Below are positions 248 to 16,264 of a stretch of 64,000 bases of DNA, piece by piece. The notes beneath the pieces are model-generated. The model was not told where the DNA came from, did not search any database, and was given only the letters and a program-made list of their open reading frames with translations. This DNA is from a virus (lineage: Duplodnaviria; Caudoviricetes), in the IMG/VR virus record IMGVR_UViG_3300011989_000257, positions 128,001 through 192,000 of that record. The stretch is one strand, 5' to 3'. The position numbers were made by a program, and so were the translations under genes. Position 1 is the stretch's first letter; every line of letters starts with the position of its first letter.

Positions 248-973
248 TTATTCACTAAGAACACCACGCACAGAGAAGCCGTTGGAGCGATAGGTGTTTT
301 CCTGCCATTTCACACTTCCATCTCTGAATTCAAAGTAGTAGGCCCACTGAACATAATAGTTGAAAAGCGAACTCGACAAATATAAGTCCCAACTGCCTAC
401 ACTGAGAACCCTACCATTGTAGCAGTAGCCACAAGCAGGAAAGAACAGTACCTTTGAACTGTCAGTCTTATCAGTACATACAAGACCCGCAACGCCACTT
501 CCTTGATAATCAGTAGTCCACGCTGTATTCACAGCATTGCCCAATGCAACATACTCTTCAGTTGTTGGCATTCTCCAACTACCACCCCAATCAGCAGTCA
601 CAGCATCATCTTCTGCATCCAATACAGTCTTACCATCAGTTGAGTTATACTTGGTCATTCCTGTATTACCAGGTGAACTTGTACCATTACCGTACTTATA
701 GTCTGCCCAACCAAAGTACTTCTGTCCACTACCACTACCTACTTGTGAAGCAGTATAGCCTTGGGTGTCACCCCATTGGAAATAAAGTCCCGTGTCAGTA
801 ATACCTGTTGCGCCGACGTTCATTGTTGCCCATTTAACACCGCCTATCTCAACATATTCGTGCGATGGGGTTTGTGGGTACAACTTAACGTCTCCAAGGT
901 AGACCTTGCAATCGCTAGAGCCTACCTTGAATGCGCTAATATCTAGATTTCCTATTCTAATTCCGTCTGCCAT
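248..973 (-). CDS. Fibre-tip adhesin with Fib_succ_major/C-type-lectin-like domain, DGR-VR-like C-terminus
   Basis: Motifs HEYVEIGGVKWATMNVGA, GLYFQWGD, WRMPT, LFFPA and GFSVRGV. Likely start is MADGIRIG at 973, just after the fibre stop. Confidence 0.75.
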   Translation of the reverse strand: MADGIRIGNLDISAFKVGSSDCKVYLGDVKLYPQTPSHEYVEIGGVKWATMNVGATGITDTGLYFQWGDTQGYTASQVGSGSGQKYFGWADYKYGNGTSSPGNTGMTKYNSTDGKTVLDAEDDAVTADWGGSWRMPTTEEYVALGNAVNTAWTTDYQGSGVAGLVCTDKTDSSKVLFFPACGYCYNGRVLSVGSWDLYLSSSLFNYYVQWAYYFEFRDGSVKWQENTYRSNGFSVRGVLSE

Positions 974-974
974 A

Positions 975-3900
975 TTAATTAACAATTACGTATAATGTAT
1001 TAGGGTCTTTTGTTGTCAAAGCATCATATGCGGCTTGTGTAATCTTCTTGAGCTTAAGTCCATCAAGGTCTGACTTATCAGCCTTATTTGTGTTCAAATC
1101 ATTCAATGCATTTGATACAGTCAATTCATTCTCAGCTACAACCTTCGTTGCAATTGGGTCTGTTGAACCACTATTTGAAGGAGTGATTGCAGTTACCGTC
1201 TCAACCTTTCCGATGTTATCTTGCAACTTGATGTCAGTACCACCACTGGTTATGTAGATGTCACCATTCTGCCTAATCTCAAAGGCATTGTGCCTTGCAT
1301 TATATTCGCCATTACCAACACTAAATAATGTATTACCACTATCACCAAATGTAGTTGAAGCTCTATTGCTTGCGTTATACTGTCCACTTGCGTGTTCATA
1401 GGAATTGGTTGTTAACGTATTTTGGCCTTCTGTGTGAGAATAATCACCATTTGCTATTGTATACGCTCCTTCAGCGTGAGAAGACTGACCACTTGCTACT
1501 GTACCTTGTCCTTCAGCATGAGAATAATTACCATTTGCCTTTGCATTCCATCCTTCAGCGTGACTACTATTACTGCTTGCAGTAGTACTCTGTCCTTCAG
1601 CGTGAGAATAATAACCACTTGCTAATGCATACTTTCCTTCAGCATGAGAAGAGTGACCACTTGCTGTTGTACTCCATCCTTCTGCGTGTGAATACTCACC
1701 ATTTGCCTTTGTACCGCATCCTTCAGCGTGAGAAGAGCGGCCACTTGCTGTTGTCTCATAACCTTCAGCATGAGATGACTCACCACTCGCCGTTGTACTA
1801 TTTCCTTCAGCGTGTGAACGTAGTCCACTTGCTACTGTACTATTTCCTTCAGCGTGAGAATAATCGCCATTTGCTTTTGTATTATAGCCTTCTGCGTGAG
1901 ATGACTCACCACTTGCTACTGTACTATTTCCTTCAGCGTGAGAATAATCGTCACTTGCAGTTGTATAATTACCTTCAGCGTGAGATTTATTACCACTTGC
2001 AATTGTACTACTGCCCTCAGCGTGAGAATAGTTACCACTTGCAGTTGTGCTATCTCCTTCAGCGTGTGAAGTCATTCCATTTGCTTGCGTATTATTTCCT
2101 TCAGCGTGAGAAAATTGACCATTTGCCTTTGTACTCAATCCTTCAGTGTGAGAAGCAAAACCACTTGCTACTGTACTATTTCCTTCTGCGTGAGAAAAAT
2201 AGCCACTTGCTACTGTACTATTTCCTTCAGCGTGAGAAACAAATGATGTTGCACTAGTACTTAGTCCTTCTGTCACAGAATAGTCACCACTTGCTGTGCC
2301 ACTTGAACCCTTTAATATAACAGAGTTCAATCCTGTTCCACTTTCCCAAAGTTCAACTGATGGCGTATATGCTGATGCATCAAGTTTCTTTTCGTCAAGG
2401 TTGTTCAATGCAGCAGATATAATCCTCTCATTCTCAATGATTACCTCAGTGATTGAAGATGATGTAAATCCGCTTCCAACAAGGCTATCAATTGCTGCCT
2501 TATTATAATAGTTTGAAGCATCAAATATATCAGTCAATGGAATATTGATATCCTGCTTTCCAGCATCGGTGTTGAATGATATAACAAGACAAGTAACTTG
2601 GCTTCCACCGCTTGTTACATCCTTGATTTCAACATTTGACACCATTCCATCCTTGATGAAATCAGTCGCATCAATATGACAAATAGATGTTGCAGTATCT
2701 GTATCGTTCTTATAGAAATTAATCTTCTTGTCGTTTGAATCATATGCAGCATAGCCAATCTTATTGGCCCAAGATGCCTTATCAGCAGCAGTTACGTGTA
2801 TCTCCGTATTTGCAGTATGCGCACTTACAGTACCACTCAATGCAACAAATGCATTAGCCCATACAAGTTCATTTTCAGTTACTGCACTGTACACAGCCTT
2901 TGTAGATATAGGATTTGTACTAGCTGTATTACTGAAATCTTGGTCAATTTCTATATTCCCGCCAAGATTATCTTGAAGCAATATATCAGTGCCGCCACTT
3001 ACAATATAAATGTCACCATTCTGCCTAATCTCAAATGCGTTGTGCCTTGCATTATCAGCAGTACCGTTACCAACACTGAATAGCGTATTACCACTATCAC
3101 CAAATGTAGTAGTAGCACTGCTACTTACATTTAACTGTCCACTTGCGTGTTCATACATATTATTTGCTTGTGTTCCTGCGCCTTCAGTGTGAGAATAATT
3201 TCCATTTGCTTGTGTTCCTATACCTTCAGCGTGCGAATTACTACCGTTTGCTTGTGTTCCTGTACCTTCAGCGTGAGATGACTCACCACTTGCTGTTGTA
3301 TGATATCCTTCAGCGTGAGAATAACTACCGCTTGCCGTTGTATTACTGCCTTCAGCGTGAGAATCACTCCCACTTGCCATTGTATAGCTACCTTCAGCGT
3401 GAGAATATTGAGTATTTGCTGTTGTATAACCACCTTCAGCGTGAGATGACTCACCGCTTGCTATTGTACTATAACCTTCAGCGTGAGAACGTGAACCATT
3501 TGCAGTTGTATAATTACCTTCAGCGTGAGAAGAACTACCATTTGCTTTAGTATAATATCCTTCAGTGTGAGAATAATACCCACTTGCAGTTGTACTATAT
3601 CCTTCAGCGTGAGAAGACTGGCCACTTGCAGTTGTACTATATCCTTCAGCGTGCGAATAGTAACCTATTGATTTAGACCAAGAACCTTCAGCAACAGAAG
3701 ATGTTCCTCTTGCTGTGTTGTTTCCTCCTTTCAATACGACAGAATTCACACCACTTCCGCTAACCCAAAGTTCTACGCTTGGTGTGTATGCGCTTGCATC
3801 GAGTTTTCTTTCATCAAGGTCAACAAGTGCTGATGATACGATTTCTTCATTCTCAATGATTACGTCAGTAATGGATGAAGGTGAAAATCCGCTACCAATA

Positions 3901-4742
3901 TAGTCTTGCAGCTTAAACGCTGGACTTGTTGTTGTACCGCCACTTGTTATGTAAATGTCACCGTTCTGTCTAACCTCAAATGCATTATGACGTGCATAGT
4001 AATTACCATTACCAACACTGAATAATGTGTTGCCACTATCGCCAAAATAAGTTGAAGCACTGCTGCTTACATTATATTGGCCACTTGCGTGCTCTGATGT
4101 GTTATTCGCTATTGTAGATTGCCCTTCAGCGTGGCTATAATTACCACTTGCAGTTGCATAATATCCTTCAGCGTGAGAATAACTACCATTTGCTTTAGTA
4201 TAATATCCTTCAGTGTGAGAAGCATATCCACTTGCAGTTGTATTATATCCTTCAGCGTGAGAATAATAACCACTTGCTATTGTATAACGTCCTTCAGCAA
4301 CAGAAGACGTTCCGCTAGCTTCATTGTATCCACCTTTCAATACAGCAGAATTCATACCACTTCCGCTTACCCACAAATCCCTAGCGTCTATCTCTGCCTT
4401 TGTGTATGTCGGTTTATATGCGCTTTTATTAAGTTTCCTTTCATCAAGGTCAGCCAATGCAAGTGCTGTGACCTTTTCGTTTGATTCAATGACACTTGTA
4501 ACCGTATTTGCACTGTTCTCACCAGTGAATCCACTTCCAAGTTTTTTCTCAGTGTAATAGTTGTCAGATGAGAATGTAACGACATCCCCGCTCTCATTCT
4601 TGATTGACAATGTTTCAACATCCTTACCGAAGTTGATGGCTATCTCACCTTCAACAAGGTCATCAGCCAACGGTAGTTTTGGCCCACCGTTCTCCTTTAA
4701 TTTGCTCTTCTTATGAGAGACAAAATAAGCGTTTTTGCCCAT
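975..4742 (-). CDS. Tail fibre with YadA-like (trimeric autotransporter head) 14-aa SHAEG repeats
   Basis: Three blocks of SHAEGxxTxAxGxx repeats, each closed by EHASGQYN...FGDSGNTLFSVGNG...RHNAFE.RQNGDIYI. C-terminus ITQAAYDALTTKDPNTLYVI is a common phage fibre end motif. Confidence 0.8.
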   Translation of the reverse strand: MGKNAYFVSHKKSKLKENGGPKLPLADDLVEGEIAINFGKDVETLSIKNESGDVVTFSSDNYYTEKKLGSGFTGENSANTVTSVIESNEKVTALALADLDERKLNKSAYKPTYTKAEIDARDLWVSGSGMNSAVLKGGYNEASGTSSVAEGRYTIASGYYSHAEGYNTTASGYASHTEGYYTKANGSYSHAEGYYATASGNYSHAEGQSTIANNTSEHASGQYNVSSSASTYFGDSGNTLFSVGNGNYYARHNAFEVRQNGDIYITSGGTTTSPAFKLQDYIGSGFSPSSITDVIIENEEIVSSALVDLDERKLDASAYTPSVELWVSGSGVNSVVLKGGNNTARGTSSVAEGSWSKSIGYYSHAEGYSTTASGQSSHAEGYSTTASGYYSHTEGYYTKANGSSSHAEGNYTTANGSRSHAEGYSTIASGESSHAEGGYTTANTQYSHAEGSYTMASGSDSHAEGSNTTASGSYSHAEGYHTTASGESSHAEGTGTQANGSNSHAEGIGTQANGNYSHTEGAGTQANNMYEHASGQLNVSSSATTTFGDSGNTLFSVGNGTADNARHNAFEIRQNGDIYIVSGGTDILLQDNLGGNIEIDQDFSNTASTNPISTKAVYSAVTENELVWANAFVALSGTVSAHTANTEIHVTAADKASWANKIGYAAYDSNDKKINFYKNDTDTATSICHIDATDFIKDGMVSNVEIKDVTSGGSQVTCLVISFNTDAGKQDINIPLTDIFDASNYYNKAAIDSLVGSGFTSSSITEVIIENERIISAALNNLDEKKLDASAYTPSVELWESGTGLNSVILKGSSGTASGDYSVTEGLSTSATSFVSHAEGNSTVASGYFSHAEGNSTVASGFASHTEGLSTKANGQFSHAEGNNTQANGMTSHAEGDSTTASGNYSHAEGSSTIASGNKSHAEGNYTTASDDYSHAEGNSTVASGESSHAEGYNTKANGDYSHAEGNSTVASGLRSHAEGNSTTASGESSHAEGYETTASGRSSHAEGCGTKANGEYSHAEGWSTTASGHSSHAEGKYALASGYYSHAEGQSTTASSNSSHAEGWNAKANGNYSHAEGQGTVASGQSSHAEGAYTIANGDYSHTEGQNTLTTNSYEHASGQYNASNRASTTFGDSGNTLFSVGNGEYNARHNAFEIRQNGDIYITSGGTDIKLQDNIGKVETVTAITPSNSGSTDPIATKVVAENELTVSNALNDLNTNKADKSDLDGLKLKKITQAAYDALTTKDPNTLYVIVN

Positions 4743-4840: not shown

Positions 4841-4912
4841 TCTTTCTATATAAATATCATAAGGAATATAAAAAAAGAGCAACCAACTTAATGATTGCCC
4901 TTGATATATTAT
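4841..4912. repeat. Terminator + late-motif intergenic cassette, repeated at 13547-13615
   Basis: About 70 bp near-identical: TCTTTCT.TATAAATATCATAAGGAATATAAAAAAGAGCAA...GATTGC.CTTGATATATTA. Confidence 0.85.
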
Positions 4913-5664
4913 TAATCAGCAACCCCACGCACAAGATGGCCGTCCTTGCGCCCAGTGCTGCTCTCCCAACTCACGTGTTCAGTTCCGAAACCCAAGTGGC
5001 AAGCGTTCATAAACCAACTGCTTTGAGTGATGTCTATAAAATGTGAACTCGACCAATACTCGCCGTTTCTACCTACATTCCACATTTTATTATTGCTACA
5101 GTAGCCACCAGCAGGGAAGAATAATACCTTGGAACTGTCTTCCTTATCAGTACATACCATACCCGAAACGCCAGTGCCTTGATAATCAGCAGTCCAAGCC
5201 GTATTCACAGCCCATCCCAATGCAGCATATTCATCGTTTGTTGGCATTCTCCATTTACCACCCCAATTGGCTATCACGGCATCATCAGATGCATCCAATA
5301 CTGTCTTACCATCAGTTTCATTATACTTGGTCATATCATCAGCAGATGGTGATGTACCCCCACTATTATACTTATAGTCTGACCAACCAAACCCCTTCTG
5401 TCCAGTACCTGTATAGCCACTTATATCACCCCATTGGAAATAAAGACCTGTATCAGTAATTGAGTTTGCCCCAACGTTCATCGTTGCCCACTTAAGGCCA
5501 GCAATTTCAACATAATCATGTCCTCTATATGGGTCAACCCAAGGACTATAATGTACATCATCTTCAGTTTTACAGATTGATACATTTGGTAGTATTGCAC
5601 CACTATCATTAATGTAATTCTCATACTGTGTATGATTCTTGAATTTCTTTAAATATATTGCCAT
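4912..5664 (-). CDS. C-type-lectin-like (Fib_succ_major-like) protein with N-terminal anchor module
   Basis: Paralog of 248..973 (HDYVEIAGLKWATMNVGA, GEYWSSS, LVRGV). N-terminus MAIYLKKF...LPNVS...VHY. Confidence 0.75.
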   Translation of the reverse strand: MAIYLKKFKNHTQYENYINDSGAILPNVSICKTEDDVHYSPWVDPYRGHDYVEIAGLKWATMNVGANSITDTGLYFQWGDISGYTGTGQKGFGWSDYKYNSGGTSPSADDMTKYNETDGKTVLDASDDAVIANWGGKWRMPTNDEYAALGWAVNTAWTADYQGTGVSGMVCTDKEDSSKVLFFPAGGYCSNNKMWNVGRNGEYWSSSHFIDITQSSWFMNACHLGFGTEHVSWESSTGRKDGHLVRGVAD

Positions 5665-5739
5665 AATTATTGTTTTCTATATAAATATCTTATGGGAAAG
5701 AAAAATGAGGAACTGTATTGAAACAATTCCTCATTAATA

Positions 5740-8700
5740 TTATTCAAATGTAAACGTATCACTAATATTGCCACTCTCAACGGTTACTACATCACCACTA
5801 CTGAATGTATGCCCTGTAAACGTAAGAATATTATCAGTTGCTGCCTTTGTTTCAACAGTTGTTCCGTTTACCTTTAATGCAAAATCAGTTGTTTGGTTTG
5901 TGTAACACTTGATAACCCTATCAGTCATCTTTGTATAGTTCTTCTGACATATATGCACGAACTTGTCTGTCTGATTCCACCAAGCCTTGTACAGATAGAA
6001 CGTATCCTTCTTGGTAACGTGGTCTCTCTCAACAAGACCCTTATTATTCAACCTTCTCAATTCATCGTCAATAGATGTGTTCTCACCATCAAGACATACT
6101 GTATATCCCTCATTTCTGTTTGCCACAGCAATGTCGAACAACTGCCATTGAGATGTGAACATCAACTGCGGATATTGCTTGATTGTCGCAATATGTCCTT
6201 CATGTAGCCACATCATATATTCAATATCGTGTCTTTCGTGATTGCCCCTTGTGGTTGTATTCATAAAGTCATCTGAGTGACAACGTTGTGTACCACCACA
6301 TCCATACTCAGAGTATGCCATTGGTTTTCCAACCCTGTTAATGGTGTTGTTAAGACGTGTGTTAATCTGTGACACAGGAGTATTTGAGTTTGGACTGTCA
6401 TACCATCCCACATATATATTACATCCGAACCAGTCAACATTAGATGGGTCATTATAGTATGCACTTGGACTTGTGCCAGGACTTTGTGCAAGCACATATC
6501 CTACCATTCTCTCAGAATCAAGTCTCTTGATTAATGCTGTGTATTCCTCTACCTTCTGCTTACCAAATGCCTTGTCATCAGTCGTTGTCTCATTGCTAAG
6601 ACCCCAGAAGAATATACAAGGGTGGTTATAGTGCTGATTGACCATATCTGTATACTGACCAGTTAAGTGTGTATAATAGTCTTCTGGCATTGTTGACTGT
6701 AACTTGTTAACACAAGGACCTTCAGTCTGCACAACTATACCCAATGCATCACATCTGTCATATACCTCCTTCGGATGAGGATAATGAGCTAAACGTAAGA
6801 AGTTAAGTCCAAGTTCTTGAATTGTTGCAAATGTATTGTTATAATCGGTTTCAGTCAATGCATTTGCCCTTCCTTCTATATCATCATGCATACAGCATCC
6901 TCTAAGAAGATATGGAGAACCATTGAGCAAGAATCCAGTATACGGATTTTCATCAGTGCCAACCTTTTCAGTATCATTGATTACATACTCATAGTATCTC
7001 AATCCATAAGGTCTTACAAACCTATGATACAAATCGTTTCCACCATATATCTCAAGTGTTACTGTGTATAGATATGGGTCTGGTTTACCATTCCATAGAT
7101 GAGGGTTTGCAATAACCTTTGTAAATGTCATTTCCTCACCAGTACTTGCACTTGTTGCAGAATAAATATTGGTATTACCATCATCAATCTTACAAACCAA
7201 CGTAGCACCAGTTGGAACACTTGTCATTATATTGACAGTTGCCTCTGCATCAGACACCGTTGACGTAATATGGAAGCCATCATAGCCATATTTCATTGCT
7301 GGAACATATGGGCTTGTAAGCAACCTTACATTACCAAGAGTCGCATTGAAGTTGAAGTCGCCAGCTGCTGGCGCAACATAGTTTCCTTCATTGTTCTTGA
7401 TTACAACCTTTACAGTATTTGAGCCACTATGTACATAATTTGATATGTCAGTGGTAAACGCTGCATAACCTCCCCAGTGCTTTTCCACAAGTGTATCATC
7501 AACATATATTGATGCTGAATGGTCAGCATGCTGGAACCACAAATACGTTGGTTGCGCTCCACTCAATGCAAAACTTGTCTCAAAGTTAAATGTTCCCTTT
7601 GCATAATTTGATGAATGACCGTCAATTGCATTGACTGAATATGGAGTGGTAATTTCGTTACCACCATAGTTCCACTTCTTTAAGTCTCTATTTGAATATT
7701 CAATAGGTACATCACTTACATATTGACAAGTTTGAGACACTGTACGACTTTCTTGACCATTCAATTCAGAATATGTTTGTATAATAGTGTCTGCTGTTAT
7801 TGTTATAGCAGTTGTATACGCACTATATTCTCCAGTATTGTTTAATCTATAATATATGTCAGCACCTTGAGTTTCACAAGTTAATGTTATCTCACTGAAT
7901 CCATCATATGTGATTGTAGGTGGAACTACTGGAACGTCATCATACACTAACCAATTTTTTGGAATACCGTTTGCTCCCCTAGTCCAAGTATCTACAGAAA
8001 CTCCGCTATCCTTTACGAATGTACCACTTGATGCAACGCCACTAGTCCAATTCTGCTTACAGTTGGTTGTGTTAAATCCATCAATTGCCATACATTTAAT
8101 ATAATTAAGGCTTGTACAGCCAGTAAACATATTACCATAACATTCAGCAACCAAATGTTCTGCAAGTAATTCTGGTGCTTCAACTATTGCACAATTTTCA
8201 AACATATACCAATAAACACCCTTTGCCAATGTTGTCGCTGGTAATTGTGGTGCTTTTGTCAAATATGTACACCAACTAAATAAAGCACGATAGCAATATT
8301 CAGTTAATGTTAATGCTGGTAGCACAAGGTTCTCAGCAGATTCTATATTTGTACGCTTAAATAATGAACAGAAATTGTATGTTCTTGTCATTGCTGTATT
8401 TCCAATGAAATTATCGCCATAAATGAGTGACATTACATTACCTTCAGCGACAAAATGAGCCGTTGAGCCTATGTCTGTAGACCCACTAGTATCTTTTCCG
8501 AATGAAGCATAATTTGATTTACTTCCAGCATATGTAGTATTAGTACCCTTAAATCTTATAACATCATCAGCTACAACATTTATTGCAGTAGGAGACGATG
8601 CTGCTGTTATAGAAGTCCATTCTCCACCGTTAAGGCTATACTCAATTGTTTTCGCATATCCGCTTCCAACAGATTTCCAACAAATTGTTCCTGCACTTGT

Positions 8701-10665
8701 TATTCTAAATGTCAAATAGTCATTTTCATAATGGTGTACTGGACTATATTCACAGTTTTGCGTTACAACAGAACTTACACGTCCTCTATATGATGAATAT
8801 GTTTCAACAAGAGTATCAGCAGTAATTACTATTGGAGTAGTATAAACTTGATAAGTTCCTTCTTGGTTTAATCTATAATTTATGGTTGCACTTGCTGTTG
8901 CACAAGCCAAAGATATTTCCTCTCCATTGAAGATAACAGTTGGGGCTACCAATACAACAGGGCTATAAGTACACGTTTCCTTTGCAGTATGTCCAACCTC
9001 AGTTCCAACTTGGGCATATGCCTCAACAACTGTTGTTGCTGTTATCTCAAACGAATCTGTATATGCACTATATGTTCCAGTTTCGTTCATTCTATAATAA
9101 AGTTCAGCATCTGTTGTTGCACAAGCAATTGACACATATTCTCCATCACAAGTGATAACTGGTGTTGCGATACCATTATCATATAAGCAGTTCTTACTTA
9201 CAGTATTACTTTTGTCACCATCAACTTCAGCATATGTTTGAACAAGTGTGTCAGCAGTAATCGCTATTGGCTCTGTATACTTAGCATATACGCCAACCTC
9301 ATTAAGCCTATAATAAATGTCAGCACCTACAGTTTCACAAGTTATTGTAACATACTGACCGTTACAATCTATTGTTGGCTCATTAACGTTGGTAAGCTTC
9401 TTAATTGAGAAACTGAATACATCAATATTTGAGAATCTGAATGGGTCTCCGTTTGCATCCAACGCACAGCCAACTGTTGTCTTAATATATTTCAAATCCT
9501 CAATGTCTGGGAATGTATTGTTTGATATATAATTGAACGCATTACCGATTAGTTCATCACAAGTAAACTTATTGGTACTAGCAGTTGGGTCATACACTAT
9601 GTGCAAATTATATTCATATATATTTGATGAACCATTATATTTGTTTGCATTTGTTGTTGTAATTGTTGTGTTCGCATTACTGCCAGTTGAGAACTGTGTA
9701 CCAAGTTGTATATACTTGTTTGCTTGAGATTGTCTTACTTGGAAGCCATACCAAGGCTCTGGTGCTGCCCTCTTTGAATTGATTATGTTATGATGATTAT
9801 CACTTTGATTTGGCGGCTGATTTGTAAAATCTATTGTAAAGTGAATATCCATCACAAAGCCTTGTGTAACATCAAGAGCATAGTATTCAGTATTAACACC
9901 ATCTGACCTAAACTCCTTCACTCCATCTGGATTTCCGCTTGTATCAATATCATATCCAGTGACAATTGTATTGCCGCTTTCATCATACTTGACATCTTGT
10001 GTGCTTACGTTGCCATCAGTATCTCCAGTCATGTTAGTACCATCAGTTGCATTACCATTGGCATCATAGTTTGTCTCATTACTTGTATATGAGCCATCTG
10101 AATTTGTTTCCTTGCTTTTCTCTGTGCTACCAATGACATTTCCTTCACTGTCTGTCACAACTGACTCTACAACCTCAGTTGAAGAACCGTCTTCATTCTC
10201 TGTCACTGTTGTGACAACTGTTGTGGTGTTTCCGCTTTCATCAGTTACAACCTCAGTTGTTGTTTCAGCAGAAGAACCACTTTGATATGTCAATGTTATT
10301 TCCTTCGTTGCAGTTTGACCATTATATGCCGCTTGTATTGTAACAGGAGATTCACTTGCTGTAGATGAAATTGTAATCTTACCGTTTGTTGCATCTATCG
10401 TTGCATAATCAGAACCACTTATAATGCTCCATACGGCAGATGATGTGACATCATTACCACCGCACATTGCGTTATATTTACAGGTTTCAGCAATTATTTC
10501 TGACGCTCCTTCTATAACCAAAGTGCATGTTGGAGATGGTTTACCAGCTGTTATATACGTCTTACTATCTCCAGAACAATATGATATATTTGGAACTACA
10601 GCACCTTCTTGTGCCATATATTCAATGTAATCATTTGTGTAATTAAATATCCTAAAATATTTCAT
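5740..10665 (-). CDS. Multidomain virion-associated protein with C-terminal GH2 glycoside hydrolase
   Basis: Anchor module, Ig-like domain, Thr/Ser/Glu-rich repeats, four FN3-associated-like repeats (TxGAxIYYxLN) and a BspA-like PxLPATTL segment. GH2 motifs HLWNG...PYLY, NFLRLAHYP, WGLSNE (acid/base) and YSEYG (nucleophile). Confidence 0.8.
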   Translation of the reverse strand: MKYFRIFNYTNDYIEYMAQEGAVVPNISYCSGDSKTYITAGKPSPTCTLVIEGASEIIAETCKYNAMCGGNDVTSSAVWSIISGSDYATIDATNGKITISSTASESPVTIQAAYNGQTATKEITLTYQSGSSAETTTEVVTDESGNTTTVVTTVTENEDGSSTEVVESVVTDSEGNVIGSTEKSKETNSDGSYTSNETNYDANGNATDGTNMTGDTDGNVSTQDVKYDESGNTIVTGYDIDTSGNPDGVKEFRSDGVNTEYYALDVTQGFVMDIHFTIDFTNQPPNQSDNHHNIINSKRAAPEPWYGFQVRQSQANKYIQLGTQFSTGSNANTTITTTNANKYNGSSNIYEYNLHIVYDPTASTNKFTCDELIGNAFNYISNNTFPDIEDLKYIKTTVGCALDANGDPFRFSNIDVFSFSIKKLTNVNEPTIDCNGQYVTITCETVGADIYYRLNEVGVYAKYTEPIAITADTLVQTYAEVDGDKSNTVSKNCLYDNGIATPVITCDGEYVSIACATTDAELYYRMNETGTYSAYTDSFEITATTVVEAYAQVGTEVGHTAKETCTYSPVVLVAPTVIFNGEEISLACATASATINYRLNQEGTYQVYTTPIVITADTLVETYSSYRGRVSSVVTQNCEYSPVHHYENDYLTFRITSAGTICWKSVGSGYAKTIEYSLNGGEWTSITAASSPTAINVVADDVIRFKGTNTTYAGSKSNYASFGKDTSGSTDIGSTAHFVAEGNVMSLIYGDNFIGNTAMTRTYNFCSLFKRTNIESAENLVLPALTLTEYCYRALFSWCTYLTKAPQLPATTLAKGVYWYMFENCAIVEAPELLAEHLVAECYGNMFTGCTSLNYIKCMAIDGFNTTNCKQNWTSGVASSGTFVKDSGVSVDTWTRGANGIPKNWLVYDDVPVVPPTITYDGFSEITLTCETQGADIYYRLNNTGEYSAYTTAITITADTIIQTYSELNGQESRTVSQTCQYVSDVPIEYSNRDLKKWNYGGNEITTPYSVNAIDGHSSNYAKGTFNFETSFALSGAQPTYLWFQHADHSASIYVDDTLVEKHWGGYAAFTTDISNYVHSGSNTVKVVIKNNEGNYVAPAAGDFNFNATLGNVRLLTSPYVPAMKYGYDGFHITSTVSDAEATVNIMTSVPTGATLVCKIDDGNTNIYSATSASTGEEMTFTKVIANPHLWNGKPDPYLYTVTLEIYGGNDLYHRFVRPYGLRYYEYVINDTEKVGTDENPYTGFLLNGSPYLLRGCCMHDDIEGRANALTETDYNNTFATIQELGLNFLRLAHYPHPKEVYDRCDALGIVVQTEGPCVNKLQSTMPEDYYTHLTGQYTDMVNQHYNHPCIFFWGLSNETTTDDKAFGKQKVEEYTALIKRLDSERMVGYVLAQSPGTSPSAYYNDPSNVDWFGCNIYVGWYDSPNSNTPVSQINTRLNNTINRVGKPMAYSEYGCGGTQRCHSDDFMNTTTRGNHERHDIEYMMWLHEGHIATIKQYPQLMFTSQWQLFDIAVANRNEGYTVCLDGENTSIDDELRRLNNKGLVERDHVTKKDTFYLYKAWWNQTDKFVHICQKNYTKMTDRVIKCYTNQTTDFALKVNGTTVETKAATDNILTFTGHTFSSGDVVTVESGNISDTFTFE

Positions 10666-10769
10666 ATATAAAATTCATTTCTCTATAAATATTTTCCCAA
10701 GAATAAAAAAATGGATAACCCATACAGATTATCCATTTTAATATAAAGAGTTATTTAAAGAAACTTAGA

Positions 10770-12548
10770 TTATGCATAGTAGCCACAATCTAATCCGTCG
10801 AATTTAAGCGTAATGCCACCATTATTGCTTGTTTCAACTATAATTGGGGTTTCTGCTGCGCCAGTAGAAGGAGCGCTAGATAATGTTAATGCAGCAACAT
10901 TATCAGTTACTGTGACGCCACTTCCATTAACTGTAATACCACTTATATATTCATCTTCAACCTTATCAAGTCTTGTATCAAGGTCATTCAATGCCTCAGC
11001 GGTAACTCTCTCGTTCTCAGTGATAACGGCATTTGTCTTCTCAAATGCAGTTGCAATTGAATCAGATGTAGCAATACCACTCAATGCACTAGCAGAATCA
11101 GCAGAGAATCCACTCATCTGAATCTTGTCAGCATCAGTTGCAAGGTCAATTTCCTTTGTACCATCAGCAACATTTCCTGGAGTTACCGTTACACTGCCAT
11201 TGGCTGATTTAACATCTGTAATTGTCTTTGCACTAAGTGCTGCAAGGTCATCAGCGTTTGCGATGTTATCTTCCTCAACATTTACAGTTGTGATAACACC
11301 ATCTGCCTCAACTACGTTAACTTTAATATGCTCTGTAGTACCACTTACATCTGCATCAAGGCCACTAACAGCAGTATTAATTGCGTCTTGTACACCAGCA
11401 AGTTTGAAGCCATCAGCACCAACAGTCAAGAATGACTCAGAAGTTTGGTCAACAACACCGTGAGCAATACCATCTGTTACAGTTACACCACTTGCGAACT
11501 CAGTTTCAAGAACAAGTTCTGACATATCAACATATGTGGTCTGAGTGTTACCGCTTGCATCAATGTATACATACTCAAGATTCTGAGCGTGTTCACCTTC
11601 TGTAATATAAGTAATGCTTACAATGTGGCTGTCCTTGTAAATCTGAACTGGAGCACCAATTGTATTGCCGCTAGCACCAATAAGACGATATTCTTCCTTA
11701 ACTATTTCAGAAAGACCAGTAGTTACCTTCTGAATTGTCAATAGTGAACTAACCGTTTTATTGTTCTGTGCATCAGCAGCAGAAATGTGAATTGTGTCCT
11801 CATCGCCAACATACTGCGTAAGTGCAGCAGAAGCAACACTAATCACACCAGTATCAGTATCGGCAACAAGAGTTTCGCCATCGATATTAACCTTGAAGTC
11901 AACACCATTACCTTCTACCAAATCACTGATTACAACAGTCTTATCAGAAGATTCGATAGTACCCTTAGTGACAGCAATTTCACCCTTGTCCTCAGATACA
12001 CTCATTACAACCTTCTTAGACTCAACCTCGCCAGTTACAGTTGGAAGGGTTGCTGTTGTTGCAGATACAATACCATCAGACTGTGTTACGTTTGTTACAT
12101 AAACACCTGTACCAGTTGTAACACCAGTGTAATCCATCTGACTCTTTAATTCATCAGCGTATCTCTTAGCACCTTCAACAGATGTCTCAGCACTTGTTGA
12201 ACTGCCATTACCACTTAAAGCAGTAAGTTGTGCTGTAACTGTCTCTGAAGCACCAGAGCCAATGCCGTTACCAAGTTTTGCATTAATCTCTTTTCTTAAT
12301 GCCTCAACGTCCTCGCTTCCACCTTCAACGTCAATGATTGTCAAGTGGTGTGTTTCACCTACCACTGCGACATATCCAACGATTGTCTTAACCTCACCAC
12401 TTACGGTGTAACGAGCAAGCAATGAAGTACCGTCTTCTGCTATACCCTTATTGTTCTCCAAAGCGGTACGTGCGGCTTCACGTGACTCAAAAGGATTTTG
12501 GTTTCTTAAGAACTTAACGTTCTCTACATTGTTTTTAATTATAGCCAT
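10770..12548 (-). CDS. Putative tail/fibre structural protein
   Basis: 592 aa, T/S/V/G-rich. Shares ENERVTAEALNDL motif with the fibre 975..4742. Ends LDCGYY. Confidence 0.6.
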   Translation of the reverse strand: MAIIKNNVENVKFLRNQNPFESREAARTALENNKGIAEDGTSLLARYTVSGEVKTIVGYVAVVGETHHLTIIDVEGGSEDVEALRKEINAKLGNGIGSGASETVTAQLTALSGNGSSTSAETSVEGAKRYADELKSQMDYTGVTTGTGVYVTNVTQSDGIVSATTATLPTVTGEVESKKVVMSVSEDKGEIAVTKGTIESSDKTVVISDLVEGNGVDFKVNIDGETLVADTDTGVISVASAALTQYVGDEDTIHISAADAQNNKTVSSLLTIQKVTTGLSEIVKEEYRLIGASGNTIGAPVQIYKDSHIVSITYITEGEHAQNLEYVYIDASGNTQTTYVDMSELVLETEFASGVTVTDGIAHGVVDQTSESFLTVGADGFKLAGVQDAINTAVSGLDADVSGTTEHIKVNVVEADGVITTVNVEEDNIANADDLAALSAKTITDVKSANGSVTVTPGNVADGTKEIDLATDADKIQMSGFSADSASALSGIATSDSIATAFEKTNAVITENERVTAEALNDLDTRLDKVEDEYISGITVNGSGVTVTDNVAALTLSSAPSTGAAETPIIVETSNNGGITLKFDGLDCGYYA

Positions 12549-12629
12549 AATTTTTTAAATGTTTATTAATTTATTCTAATTTTATGTTAATAATAAATAT
12601 TTCATTGCTATACAAAAGTATAACATTTA

Positions 12630-13379
12630 TTATTGTTCTACCTTAGTCCAATTGTACTTGCCTAAGTAATAATCATCTGTACTCATCCATGTATCATAAC
12701 CACTGCTACCACTTGGTACTGTTAATGTACCACCTGTCTTAACATTTAGGAATGTATTACTTTGTATTGTAGGAGCAGTCATAGCATTAGACACTATATT
12801 TGTAAGGCTACCGTTACTATCGAAAGCGCTAGAGCCAATGCTTGTAACGCTATCAGGTATAGTTATACTTGTTAAATTATAACAGCCACTGAAAGCAGCC
12901 TCACCAATATTTGTAACACTATCAGGTATATCTATACTTATTAAACCACTACAACTAATGAAAACAGCTTTACTAATATTTATAACACCATTTGGTATAA
13001 TAACTTCTATCAAATTACCATTACTAAACACAGGCGTTTGATTACCTAATTTGGTTTTATCATATAATTCATACTTAACTGTATGAACACCTGTTGTGTC
13101 AAATGTATACTCAGTCACAAGCTCATCTAACATAACACCATCAATCTCCATTGACTTAAATATATTCTGCTCAAAGTTTGTTCTTAATGCTGTTGGATTG
13201 CTTGTATCAGTCACATTATACACCGCAATCAACTTTGGGTCAGAAGGTGGTTCTGGACTTGATGGGTTATATTCCACTCCATTTGTCTCATCAATCAATG
13301 ACACATTTGGTAACATTAAGCTACTCTGTGCTGCCTCATAAGCAGCCTGTGTCGCAAATTCTCTTAAATAAACTGCCAT
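12630..13379 (-). CDS. BspA-type leucine-rich-repeat (LRR_5) protein with N-terminal anchor module
   Basis: Repeats IPDSVTNIGEAAFSGCYNLTSITIPDSVTSIGSSAF. N-terminus MAVYLREF...LPNVSL...VEY. Confidence 0.85.
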   Translation of the reverse strand: MAVYLREFATQAAYEAAQSSLMLPNVSLIDETNGVEYNPSSPEPPSDPKLIAVYNVTDTSNPTALRTNFEQNIFKSMEIDGVMLDELVTEYTFDTTGVHTVKYELYDKTKLGNQTPVFSNGNLIEVIIPNGVINISKAVFISCSGLISIDIPDSVTNIGEAAFSGCYNLTSITIPDSVTSIGSSAFDSNGSLTNIVSNAMTAPTIQSNTFLNVKTGGTLTVPSGSSGYDTWMSTDDYYLGKYNWTKVEQ

Positions 13380-13434
13380 AATTTTCTTAAATATTTAATC
13401 TGTTATTATTATTTCATTTTATAATGTCCTCATA

Positions 13435-13533
13435 TCAAAGTGGAAATACTTGCACGCTTGGAACAACGAACTCTTCTGAAGCAATATATTCCAAATATTC
13501 CTCGTGATTATTAAACAATCTTAGATATTTCAT
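13435..13533 (-). pseudogene. Truncated anchor-module-only ORF (32 aa)
   Basis: MKYLRLFNNHEEYLEYIASEEFVVPSVQVFPL* matches the first ~25 aa of the shared anchor module, then stops. It has its own late motif at 13555. Confidence 0.6.
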
Positions 13534-13613
13534 ACTTTAACTTTTTTCTTTCTCTATAAATATCATAAGGAATATAAAAAAGAGCAATCATTAAGTTGAT
13601 TGCTCTTGATATA

Positions 13614-14372
13614 TTATTCACCAATAACACCACGAACGGGGTAGGCGATATAGCGGCTGCTGTAGACATTACAAGTCACGTAGCCACTGTTGTTGAAGTT
13701 CAAGGTGTAAGCGTTCTTAACATTATTGCTGTAAAGTGAACTTGACCGATAGTTGCCGATACTACCTACAAACTTAACACTACCATCATTACACCTGCCA
13801 GCAGCAGGGAAGAACAATGTCTTGGAAGAGTCAGTTTTATCTGTAAACATTATACCACTAACTGTTACATTATCAATAGTGATTGAAGTCCAAGCATTAG
13901 TTGTCGCATCAATCAATGATTGAAACTCATCTTTTGTTGGCATTCTCCAACTGCCACCCAAATTGGCTATTACAGCATCATCAACAGATTCAAGCACTGT
14001 CTTGCCATCACTTGAGTTATACTTGGTTATATCACTTTCAGAACCGTTTGCAAGTTCATAATCAGCCCAACTGAATACCCTGCAACCACCAGTCACTTGG
14101 TCAGCAGTGAAACCATTAACGCCACCCCAAGAAAAATACTGACCATAGTCAGTTATTGTCTTTGCACCAACGTTCTTTGTTGCCCACTTAACACCACCAA
14201 TCTTAACCCATTCATAAGTGGTTTCGACCTTCTCACTTATGCAAGGGTCAACCCAAGGTTTATAATGTACAGCATTATTATCCAAGGTCAATGATACATT
14301 AGGTAGAATCAACCCACTTTCCGCTGCTTCATAAGCGGCTTGTGTTTCAAATTGTTTTAAATAAATTGCCAT
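13614..14372 (-). CDS. C-type-lectin-like (Fib_succ_major-like) protein with anchor module and DGR-VR-like C-terminus
   Basis: KIGGVKWATKNVGA, WRMPT, LFFPAAG, GNYRSSS...NAYTLNFNN...PVRGV. 3' end rich in AAC/NAC/ANC codons. Confidence 0.75.
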   Translation of the reverse strand: MAIYLKQFETQAAYEAAESGLILPNVSLTLDNNAVHYKPWVDPCISEKVETTYEWVKIGGVKWATKNVGAKTITDYGQYFSWGGVNGFTADQVTGGCRVFSWADYELANGSESDITKYNSSDGKTVLESVDDAVIANLGGSWRMPTKDEFQSLIDATTNAWTSITIDNVTVSGIMFTDKTDSSKTLFFPAAGRCNDGSVKFVGSIGNYRSSSLYSNNVKNAYTLNFNNSGYVTCNVYSSRYIAYPVRGVIGE

Positions 14373-14488
14373 AATTCTTTATTTGATATTTTTAATAAAT
14401 TATTTTCATTATAGATAAATATTTCACGCATAAACAAAAATGGGATAACCAATCAAGATTATCCCATTTATTATAGATTATGCATTCA

Positions 14489-16264
14489 TTAAGCATCCTT
14501 CTTAACTGTATATACAGTACTATCGCCATCTTGTGATATCTCAACGTGATAACCTTCAGCAACAAAGTTCGTATGCTCACCTTCAGCACTATTATCAGCA
14601 GGGTTGAAGTCATAGAACTTACCACCAGTTACAACAATCTTTGCAGTACCTGCTTTATAGTTTGCATCATAACAGTTCAATAAGAATTTCTTATCCTCAC
14701 CGTTGTTCTTGAATATACCATCTGTGATATTGATAGTTCCAAGGTAACAGTAAATCAACTCGCCACCACTTCTATCAGTAGTATATGTTGGTCTTCCAAA
14801 CATTGTTCCGCTAAGTGTAACAACACAGTCAGCGCCATCAGTCTCAACCGCAACACGTCCACCAGCATCTATTGTACCGCTACCGCCAATGTTAACCTGC
14901 TGCTTATTTCTGAACATCATAGCTGGGCTGCTTGTTGAAGAGCCAGTGAATGTTACAGTCTTACCGCCAAGATTCAACTTAACAATGTTCTTTGCTGTTA
15001 TACCTGCTGTAATAGTACCAGTAGTAATATCCTCAGTCAACTTAGCCTCACCACTCTTACTCTTCAACATAGTATCCAATGTACTGTCTGCTGGGATAGA
15101 ATAAGTAGTTGCATAGTAAAGGTCAAGTACCATATCATTCAATCTGTCATATGCTGCCTGGATTTCATCTATTTCTGCATCCTTTGTTGCAAGCAATTCA
15201 TCAACATCTTCCTTTGTATAGGTTGTTTCCTTGTCAGCCTTCAAGTCAATTGCTGCCTGCAAATCTGTTTCAGCAGATATTGCCCTTTCTTTCTCTGCTT
15301 CAATGCTTTCGGTAACTGCGCTAGCATCTGCCTTTGTTGCAATTATTGCATCTTGTGCTTCATCTGCTGCGATTCTTGCAGTTTCTTCTGTTGCGATTGC
15401 AGTCACATTTGCATCAATGCCAGCTTGCAAAGCATCATCCTTTCCGTCAACCTCACCCTTTGTATAGAAATCAGTTGGAATCTCAGATTTATCAGCCTTA
15501 AGTGCAAGTGCTGCATCAACATCTGCCGAATTAGCTTTCAAATTGATTGCATCCTGCAAACCAGTCTCAGCAGAAAGTGCCCTCTGAGCCTCGTTCTCAA
15601 CCTCAGCAGATACATTGTCCACAGCGCCTGAAATAGCCTCGTCAAAAGCCTTTAAAGCGCTTACAGAAGCATCAACTTCTGCTTTAGTTGCAAGATAAGA
15701 AACATCTTGATGCTCTGTTAAATAATTCTTACTCTCAACCCATGCTTCTGTCGCATATCCATCCAATGAAGGAATGTCTGCCTTATCCGCTTTAGTTTCT
15801 AATTTGGCATCAACATCAGCAATCTTTGCATAGTCATCCAAATCACTAACGTTTGCTTTTTCGTTTAAAAAGCCATCAACCTCATCTTTTGTATAATACA
15901 AATCTTTATTAAACAATTCTTTTAGGTCAATGTCAATTTCTTCTTTTCCACTTTCAGTATTGAAAATTATTCTTAGGGTAGTGCCATCAAGCTCAACAGA
16001 TTCAATCATTCCATCTTTGACGAAATCTATTGCGTCAATTTCTGCAACTTTATTTCCGTTTGCTGTAAAAACAATTTTTTTGGAATCGCTGTCATATTTA
16101 GCCTCATCAAATTTTGCATTTTTGAGTTCATCAATGTCTTTAAATTCCTTTTCATCATTCTTTTTACTTTCAGCTAACTCATTGTCAACTATTGTTTTCT
16201 TACTAATGTAATCGTTTTCGTCCCTGTAACCCCAAGGCTCATACATTCTAGTTCTTCTTTTCAT
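14489..16264 (-). CDS. Putative tail fibre (coiled-coil shaft plus beta-rich C-terminal domain)
   Basis: KAD/YTK.EVD repeats. IDAIDFVKDGMIESV...FNT..GK module shared with 975..4742. Confidence 0.65.
   Translation of the reverse strand: MKRRTRMYEPWGYRDENDYISKKTIVDNELAESKKNDEKEFKDIDELKNAKFDEAKYDSDSKKIVFTANGNKVAEIDAIDFVKDGMIESVELDGTTLRIIFNTESGKEEIDIDLKELFNKDLYYTKDEVDGFLNEKANVSDLDDYAKIADVDAKLETKADKADIPSLDGYATEAWVESKNYLTEHQDVSYLATKAEVDASVSALKAFDEAISGAVDNVSAEVENEAQRALSAETGLQDAINLKANSADVDAALALKADKSEIPTDFYTKGEVDGKDDALQAGIDANVTAIATEETARIAADEAQDAIIATKADASAVTESIEAEKERAISAETDLQAAIDLKADKETTYTKEDVDELLATKDAEIDEIQAAYDRLNDMVLDLYYATTYSIPADSTLDTMLKSKSGEAKLTEDITTGTITAGITAKNIVKLNLGGKTVTFTGSSTSSPAMMFRNKQQVNIGGSGTIDAGGRVAVETDGADCVVTLSGTMFGRPTYTTDRSGGELIYCYLGTINITDGIFKNNGEDKKFLLNCYDANYKAGTAKIVVTGGKFYDFNPADNSAEGEHTNFVAEGYHVEISQDGDSTVYTVKKDA

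Follow-up and report, generated by a model that had tools for sequence, protein, structure and literature searches.

The 64,000-nt window analysed here comprises bases 128,001-192,000 of a 412,514-bp IMG/VR virus record (hereafter G000; 34.5% G+C, estimated complete) and contains, on its minus strand, five open reading frames (ORFs) which begin with one and the same short protein module and continue into unrelated domains, to which we refer as heads. An initial annotation of the window had described this module as a shared N-terminal anchor of about 40 residues. All five ORFs are confirmed as carrying it from residue 1, and only the length has to be corrected, to nearer 45 residues. A hidden Markov model (HMM) of the module, run on all 4,547 ORFs of at least 25 aa in the genome, matched seven of them with E-values from 1e-15 to 2e-27 (next ORF, E > 0.03); five of the seven lie in the window and two outside it, and in every case the module occupies residue 1 onward. 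The heads are leucine-rich repeat (LRR) domains of the BspA type in three copies, lectin-like domains in two and a GH2 glycosidase in one, and the seventh copy is a stub that has no head (coordinates are collected in Table 1). The module of the GH2 gene is recognized with E = 2e-22 by the genome's own profile and with E = 1e-8 by a broad profile.

The module represents a real domain family that is strictly N-terminal and restricted to viruses. A profile search against 1.84 billion representative proteins (clusters at 50% identity) yielded 1,929 clusters at E <= 1e-3 and 246 at E <= 1e-10. The match begins at residue 1 in 139 of the 151 proteins retrieved, and since the remaining 12 have a Met exactly at the start of the module, we conclude that their gene starts were miscalled. 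No Pfam domain covers the module among the 150 best matches, PHROGs and NCBIfam models cover the heads and none the module, tblastn of the module against 50,697 GenBank phages gave no match, the profile met PDB sequences with a chance match only (importin re-exporter, E 0.44), and a search of the ESM Atlas returned low-score leads only. The viral nature of the module follows from its presence on 27 distinct IMG/VR contigs, its detection at just five loci of metagenome-assembled genomes (MAGs) in a pattern scan of 185,579 one-per-species prokaryote genomes, and its absence from all of 400 further Bacteroidaceae-family genomes that were searched with the profile. A mainly cellular occurrence, which the initial annotation had set against its own proposal of a virion display system, is thus not what we find; the rare cellular copies are most simply explained as transposon cargo (see below).

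The carriers of the module are T4-type megaphages of ~400 kb with 3 to 13 copies apiece, among them the complete IMG/VR records G406 (412,753 bp, 3 copies) and G407 (401,138 bp, 13 copies). G000 itself encodes a T4-type major capsid protein (Pfam Gp23, 215 bits; genome 75,574-77,604) and a family-B DNA polymerase with only ~25% identity to that of any GenBank phage, and a comparison of the region with the 50,697 GenBank phage records gave no DNA match at all. The source appears to be an uncultured phage of the rumen type that forms a clade with other T4-type megaphages of ~400 kb; its habitat and the Prevotella-type hosts of the clade are suggested by the titles of the MAGs.

As to the heads, the BspA-type LRR passenger that had been proposed for the ORF at 12630 is corroborated by a score of 81 bits for LRR_5 (Pfam gathering cut-off 27.7), and the GH2 passenger proposed at 5740 by its sugar-binding, immunoglobulin-like and TIM-barrel domains (29, 30.7 and 84.8 bits), all of which lie over their cut-offs (21 for the TIM barrel). 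The lectin fold that had been assigned to two further heads stands only in part: the closest PDB folds of the AlphaFold model of the 252-aa protein are the Lcl C-terminal domain and then Mtd, at E-values of only ~0.1-0.2, but the 250-aa and 252-aa proteins score 22.5 and 31.7 bits for Lcl_C (cut-off 34.9), and 18.6 and 27.8 bits for FISUMP (TIGR02145; cut-off 41.65), and thus remain under the curated cut-offs of both families. The label 'lectin-like' is therefore reasonable as a statement of resemblance, and not of proven family membership. Cataloguing the passengers of the module across phages with the HMM, as had been recommended, returned LRR_5, Lcl_C, Big_2 and GH2 again in the relatives; among the 150 best database matches, many of which are fragments, LRR_5 occurs 66 times, Lcl_C eight times, Big_2 three times, and other types once each.

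The genes in question belong to a fibre island of ~22 kb. In order of transcription, it consists of a 774-aa coiled-coil protein, a 591-aa fibre-like protein, slot A (module-lectin252, stub, module-LRR249), a 592-aa fibre-like protein, module-GH2, slot B (module-lectin250), a 1255-aa fibre, a lectin-like gene with a different N-terminus, a 606-aa fibre-like protein, and slot C (module-LRR688). The sister genome G406 keeps the fibre backbone, and also a GH2 gene that is 96% identical; there slot A is occupied by one LRR gene, slot B by nothing, and slot C by another LRR gene. When the two genomes are aligned at slot A, 95% DNA identity extends through the upstream intergenic region and into the module for approximately 22 nt. 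Beyond this point the identity is lost, and it resumes at 89% downstream of the slot. Cassettes are exchanged and turned over in this island.

Table 1. Features of the fibre island of G000 and of related loci (window positions, unless marked as genome positions; G406, related genome)
Feature	Position	Strand	Remarks
Module, Pro-containing linker and lectin-like head, 252 aa	13614-14372	-	module ~14238-14372; HMM E = 7e-22
Stub of 32 codons: β1, helix and β2 of the module	13435-13533	-	own promoter-like motif; HMM E = 9e-17
Module, Pro-rich linker and BspA-type LRR head, 249 aa	12630-13379	-	module ~13245-13379; follows the stub
Divergent module, long multi-domain stalk and GH2 glycosidase, 1641 aa	5740-10665	-	module ~10531-10665
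Module and lectin-like head, 250 aa	4912-5664	-	module ~5530-5664; G406 lacks it in that slot
Module and LRR head, 688 aa	genome 124137-126203		outside the window
Module and LRR head, 337 aa	genome 231447-232460		outside the window
591-aa backbone fibre-like protein	14489-16264	-	upstream of slot A; weak phage-tail-repeat match
592-aa backbone fibre-like protein	10770-12548	-	between cassette slots
606-aa fibre-like paralogue of the 592-aa protein	genome 126295-128115	-	
1255-aa fibre, YadA-head-type repeats and Phage_tail_C tip domain	975-4742	-	
Third lectin-like gene, without module	248-985	-	follows the 1255-aa fibre
ATATTTAT promoter-like motif, 252-aa gene	14415-14422	-	
ATATTTAT motif, stub	13556-13563	-	
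ATATTTAT motif, 592-aa fibre	12593-12600	-	
ATATTTAT motif, GH2 gene	10685-10692	-	
ATATTTAT motif, 250-aa gene	5681-5688	-	
ATATTTAT motif	4850-4857	-	
3' joint behind the 252-aa gene: hairpin resembling a terminator, with T-run, then promoter-like motif	13547-13618	-	
IS1595-family transposon, 2,465 bp	genome 231,301-233,765 (L003:711-3175)		outside the window

Exchange is likewise evident from the modules themselves, the identity of which cuts across head type: the module of the 250-aa lectin-like protein is 70% identical to that of the 337-aa LRR protein, and 57% identical to that of the 252-aa lectin-like protein. On a tree of 103 modules (45 columns) the head label changes 27 times, compared with ~31 times when labels are shuffled; only its well-supported branches are trustworthy, and these still demand 3 to 5 changes or more for each label. 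Conversely, one lectin head is found behind three different N-terminal elements. The third lectin-like gene of the island starts with a unique N-terminus of ~35 residues, after a probable ATG located a few codons into a TTG ORF and without a paralogue in the genome, its counterpart in G406 bears yet another N-terminus, and heads 60% identical to its lectin-like head follow the module on other contigs. In their entirety, these observations endorse the earlier proposal that the heads behind the one module are interchangeable.

The stub, which comprises only the first strand, the helix and the second strand of the module, had been regarded as a deletion remnant, and our comparisons lead to the same view. 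Its DNA is 71% identical over 108 nt to the 5' end of the GH2 cassette, and 77-78% identical to GH2/Big_2-type cassettes of relatives, with the alignments to such 5' ends stopping at about codon 25; moreover, the stub is unique to this genome and absent from G406. Most simply, it is what remains of a cassette that lost its head upon the arrival of the LRR cassette.

Homologous exchange is not the only route by which a cassette travels, since one of them is carried by a transposon of the IS1595 family. The element of G000 is bounded by perfect 25-nt inverted repeats, next to which 8 bp are duplicated (TTTATTTT). It encodes a transposase (DDE_Tnp_IS1595, 150 bits at a cut-off of 27, plus a zinc ribbon), and the module-LRR337 gene travels in it as cargo, together with a hairpin and the ATATTTAT motif. 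A Prevotellaceae MAG contains the same element as an independent insertion (L021:5871-7988); the inverted repeats are identical there, the duplication is a different one (AATATTTT), the cargo is a module-lectin gene, and the element adjoins a Bacteroides-type gene. In three of the remaining four MAG loci (L017, L018, L019) the module gene lies between repeats that are identical or degenerate, and in the fourth (L020) a transposase homologue is adjacent to it; one of the MAG contigs holds ordinary chromosomal genes. Because all of them adjoin transposon ends or a transposase, the cellular copies of the module are most simply explained as cargo, and the MAG copies of the transposon point to Prevotellaceae-type hosts. 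In G406, a transposase with 97% identity and the right-hand repeat lie behind the gene of slot C. Insertion sequences of the IS1595 family with passenger genes are a known kind in the ISfinder classification, and the element at hand agrees with them in its zinc-ribbon DDE_Tnp_IS1595 transposase, its terminal inverted repeats, the 8-bp target duplication and the single passenger gene. It differs from them in its passenger, a phage cassette that brings along a promoter-like motif of the phage and whose head varies between copies, and in that copies of this element reside in both phage genomes and host-type chromosomes.

AlphaFold2 predictions, made on monomers, were obtained for the 252-aa protein and for the module alone. 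The model of the former (mean pLDDT 93.4; 82-94 in the module part) exhibits a strand (residues 4-8), a helix (11-20), two further strands (25-29 and 34-38), a weaker, Pro-containing linker (40-54) and the head, and the module alone is predicted with the same elements (pLDDT 77). The nearly invariant residues of the family (Y4, L5, F8, Y14, the P-N-V-S turn, V37, Y39 and P41) form the pattern of a small hydrophobic core. An N-x-S sequon lies inside the P-N-V-S turn (module residues ~26-29) in all copies.

Foldseek identified the trimerization domain of human collagen XVIII as a match of the whole-protein model (probability 1.00, r.m.s.d. 1.1 Å, 37 columns) and as the top match of the module alone (probability 0.94, TM 0.59), with r.m.s.d. 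values for collagen XVIII of 1.1-2.0 Å and E-values of 0.4-0.5. VIA-align, which is independent of Foldseek, likewise ranked collagen XVIII first among 48,161 chains (Z 3.9, 39 residues, 2.2 Å) and collagen XV second (Z 3.5). Hence, the NC1 trimerization domains of collagen XV and XVIII (PDB 3HSH, 3HON, 3N3F, 9BNB), which are similar in size to the module, come out on top with two methods and for two models. These domains are used to trimerize whatever is fused to them, as in 'trimerbodies' (PMC3564888). They belong, however, to extracellular-matrix proteins of animals and share only 6-8% identity with the module in the structural alignments, which is no sequence homology; common ancestry is therefore not implied, and trimerization of the module is a prediction.

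Only 20 chains reached Z >= 2 in VIA-align, and these include N-termini of phage tailspikes or fibres, namely 7chu (residues 3-47), 7w1c (10-49) and 7xyc (14-63). 7W1C is the K1-lyase tailspike of a Klebsiella phage, and its authors describe the N-terminal domain, a trimer in the crystal, as having a collagen XVIII-like fold (PMC8822698). Like the module, this domain is a small β/α domain at the N-terminus of a phage protein; the direct comparison of the two structures gives a Z-score of only 2.4, without similarity in sequence, and the 7W1C domain has five strands and ~60 residues. The structural matches thus represent a consistent lead to a trimerizing N-terminal unit, and not a proof of one. 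A Sec or lipoprotein signal peptide, for which we required a hydrophobic core of at least 10 residues after a basic N-region, was considered and rejected: with a longest hydrophobic run of 3-4 residues and a maximal 12-residue Kyte-Doolittle mean of <=1.34, the module has no hydrophobic core segment and is therefore not an export signal.

A further link to the virion is suggested by the promoter-like motif ATATTTAT. Genome-wide, it precedes 61 of 711 ORFs at a distance of no more than 70 nt, where ~10 would be expected (a ~six-fold excess), and these ORFs comprise the Gp23-type major capsid gene and its neighbours; for many genes, that of the major capsid protein included, the distance is 8-51 nt. 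The cassettes carry an upstream hairpin together with the motif, and the LRR249 gene, which lies behind the stub, has no motif of its own. Because the motif is common to the cassettes and the capsid gene, the cassettes look co-regulated with virion genes, as far as can be judged from a putative promoter motif. The 3' joint that follows the 252-aa gene is present a second time, at 4841-4913 behind the 250-aa gene, with 89% identity over 75 nt.

Based on this evidence, we consider it moderately probable that the module is an autonomous trimerizing N-terminal adaptor that attaches exchangeable heads to the virion, with the cassettes being swapped by recombination and by the IS1595 element. In this reading, the module is an autonomous β-α-β-β domain of ~45 residues, followed by a Pro-rich linker. 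It would most likely trimerize and form the proximal end for heads that bind glycans or surfaces, and the structure to which it attaches would be part of the virion, with a tail fibre or the baseplate as the most probable site. Each gene is a self-contained cassette composed of terminator-like hairpin, ATATTTAT motif, module, linker and head; the heads are swapped by recombination in or beside the conserved module DNA, and the IS1595-family transposon carries one such cassette as cargo. Turnover of the cassettes and their carriage by a transposon are demonstrated, and we infer that the module trimerizes, that it attaches to the virion, and where it docks; display at a common site of the virion, as put forward in the initial annotation, is suggested by the tail-fibre island, in which the cassettes alternate with fibre genes and which in G406 comes right behind the capsid gene, by the motif shared with the capsid gene and by the likeness of the fold to a solved tailspike N-terminus.

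Anchor systems based on a conserved peptide are known from Klebsiella phages and coliphages (PMC6872550), where docking by the conserved peptide has been shown experimentally (PMC13352976), where jumbo phages possess about ten different fibre proteins each (PMC10253068), and where, in Klebsiella phages, truncated genes that keep the docking peptide alone have been described (PMC6872550). We compared the module with the systems of the Klebsiella KP32, KP34, Menlow and phiK64-1/RaK2 groups and of K1-5, SP6, G7C and CBA120. As in those systems, the module is conserved at the N-terminus of several otherwise unrelated proteins of one phage whose C-terminal heads vary; an extreme N-terminal element with divergent C-termini, by which such systems are recognized, is seen from residue 1 in the seven copies of G000 and likewise in the relatives. 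The many heads per genome resemble the jumbo phages, and the stub parallels the truncated docking-peptide genes. In contrast to the known systems, the module family is without a model in Pfam, PHROGs and NCBIfam, its phages appear to infect anaerobes of the Prevotella type, and the heads are LRR, lectin-like, immunoglobulin-like and GH2 domains instead of β-helix depolymerases. Moreover, docking has been shown for the anchor systems, which have a T4gp10-like branching partner, whereas docking of the module would be by analogy, and our search for such a partner, with a control that was uninformative, found none. Hence, the design principle of swappable heads is a known one and the domain family is new, as are its restriction to Bacteroidota-type megaphages, the non-depolymerase heads, the presence of up to 13 copies, and the IS1595 carriage shared with host-type chromosomes.

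Several observations weigh against a trimerizing virion adaptor. As is usual for domains of 45 residues, the structural match scores low in absolute terms (Z 3.9, Foldseek E 0.5, identity 6-8%); such scores lie below the levels that exclude a merely common arrangement, and a shared fold alone does not establish function. LRR domains are usually monomeric. The branching domain of the T4 gp9/gp10 type (PF07880) had no match in the genome, in a search that gave none in the control genomes either. The island of G000 (genome 124-147 kb) is bordered by replication and metabolism genes and not by baseplate genes; its position in G406, at 303-324 kb (L049, L050) directly after the Gp23-type major capsid gene, by contrast favours the adaptor, and from these different flanks we conclude that it moved as a block, the genes flanking it in G406 being 85-97% identical to their G000 counterparts. 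Finally, the 13 module genes of G407 are scattered genome-wide and accompanied by one 592-type fibre only. A model in which every backbone fibre has a head of its own right behind it, which fits G000 and G406, is contradicted by G407, as the number of 592-type fibres does not follow the module copy number.

Part of this evidence would also suit a module that does no more than trimerize soluble lectin, LRR or glycosidase proteins outside the virion, which would bind or trim host or dietary glycans after release at lysis or would work on the surface of infected cells. The top fold matches are pure trimerization units, neither the PF07880 search with its uninformative control nor the comparison of fibre numbers revealed a docking partner, many of the G407 copies lie far from fibre genes, and copies survive as transposon cargo in bacterial chromosomes. 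Lacking an export signal, however, such proteins would need lysis for their release, and a role apart from the virion accords poorly with the motif shared with the capsid gene, with the interleaving of cassettes and fibre genes, and with the same fold at the virion-proximal end of a solved tailspike; we regard this explanation as unlikely. Still less probable, in our judgement, is a decoration of capsid or tail tube in the manner of Hoc, in which the module would dock the heads on the surface of capsid or sheath, with heads that adhere to mucus, plant or microbial glycans rather than to primary receptors. Immunoglobulin-like Big_2, lectin and LRR domains are typical of adhesion, the G406 island lies right behind the major capsid gene, and there are up to 13 different heads per genome; but the nearest neighbours of the cassettes are fibre-like proteins with a tail-tip domain, and scans with Pfam and PHROG reveal no likeness to known decoration proteins.

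Two further explanations deny the module a lasting place in the mature protein, or any function at the protein level, and both appear very improbable to us. The strictly N-terminal position on unrelated proteins might be that of a removable address tag, i.e., a leader for capsid targeting or one that is otherwise cleaved, like the targeting sequence of T4 internal proteins. Such a leader would be short and unstructured and end in a conserved protease site (hydrophobic-x-Glu). Yet the ~45 residues of the module fold into a domain and show the pattern of a hydrophobic core, neither an invariant Glu nor another cleavage motif is seen in or after its conserved columns, and the heads are binding domains of the extracellular type; the T4-type capsid-targeting leader was accordingly rejected. 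Alternatively, the 5' end might be kept at the level of DNA alone, as a handle for recombination or for translation initiation, and the peptide be functionless. This would account for recombination breakpoints in or beside the module DNA, and for a promoter-like motif and 5' region that travel together, but it is at odds with a protein that is conserved at 40-50% identity and with an invariant structural pattern over ~1,900 clusters, with a confidently predicted fold, and with the low DNA identity between paralogous modules.

If the module indeed serves as trimerizing adaptor at the virion, it is tempting to go one step further, though we attach only a low probability to this extension, and to speculate that trimeric heads compete for one docking site, so that each virion would display a stochastic mix of them, and that the IS1595 element shuttles cassettes of promoter, adaptor and head between megaphages and Prevotellaceae chromosomes. 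Each virion would then possess a combinatorial repertoire for host recognition or adhesion (6 intact heads here, 13 in a relative), and the host population would represent a reservoir of receptor-binding modules for phages. How the huge uncultured phages that infect Bacteroidota of gut and rumen recognize their hosts is, to our knowledge, almost unexplored. One easily recognized domain that marks ~1,900 clusters offers a handle to list candidate binding proteins and to trace the exchange of their heads, which can be expressed with or without the adaptor and thus give access to assays. The transposon-borne cassette, in turn, links megaphages to Prevotellaceae and adds a route of mobility besides homologous recombination. 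Should the module trimerize, it would also provide a compact natural trimerization tag.

Some minor observations concern other proteins of the island. The lectin-like genes of Table 1 were considered as targets of a diversity-generating retroelement and rejected as such: no reverse transcriptase is encoded (RVT_1 is absent from the genome, the control being positive in 3 genomes) and there is no template repeat, and we therefore conclude that they are not targets in this genome; their 3' ends match only paralogous lectin genes. Relatives of the lectin-like head (from residue 45 on, i.e., without the module) with 30% identity occur in Prevotella Lak megaphages (records H1-H6). The 592-aa and 606-aa fibre-like proteins share their first ~100-140 residues only, with 31% identity, and this stretch constitutes a second shared N-terminal element in the island. 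Similarly, the 1255-aa fibre has its first ~60 residues in common with a 1266-aa protein encoded at genome 329,994-333,794.

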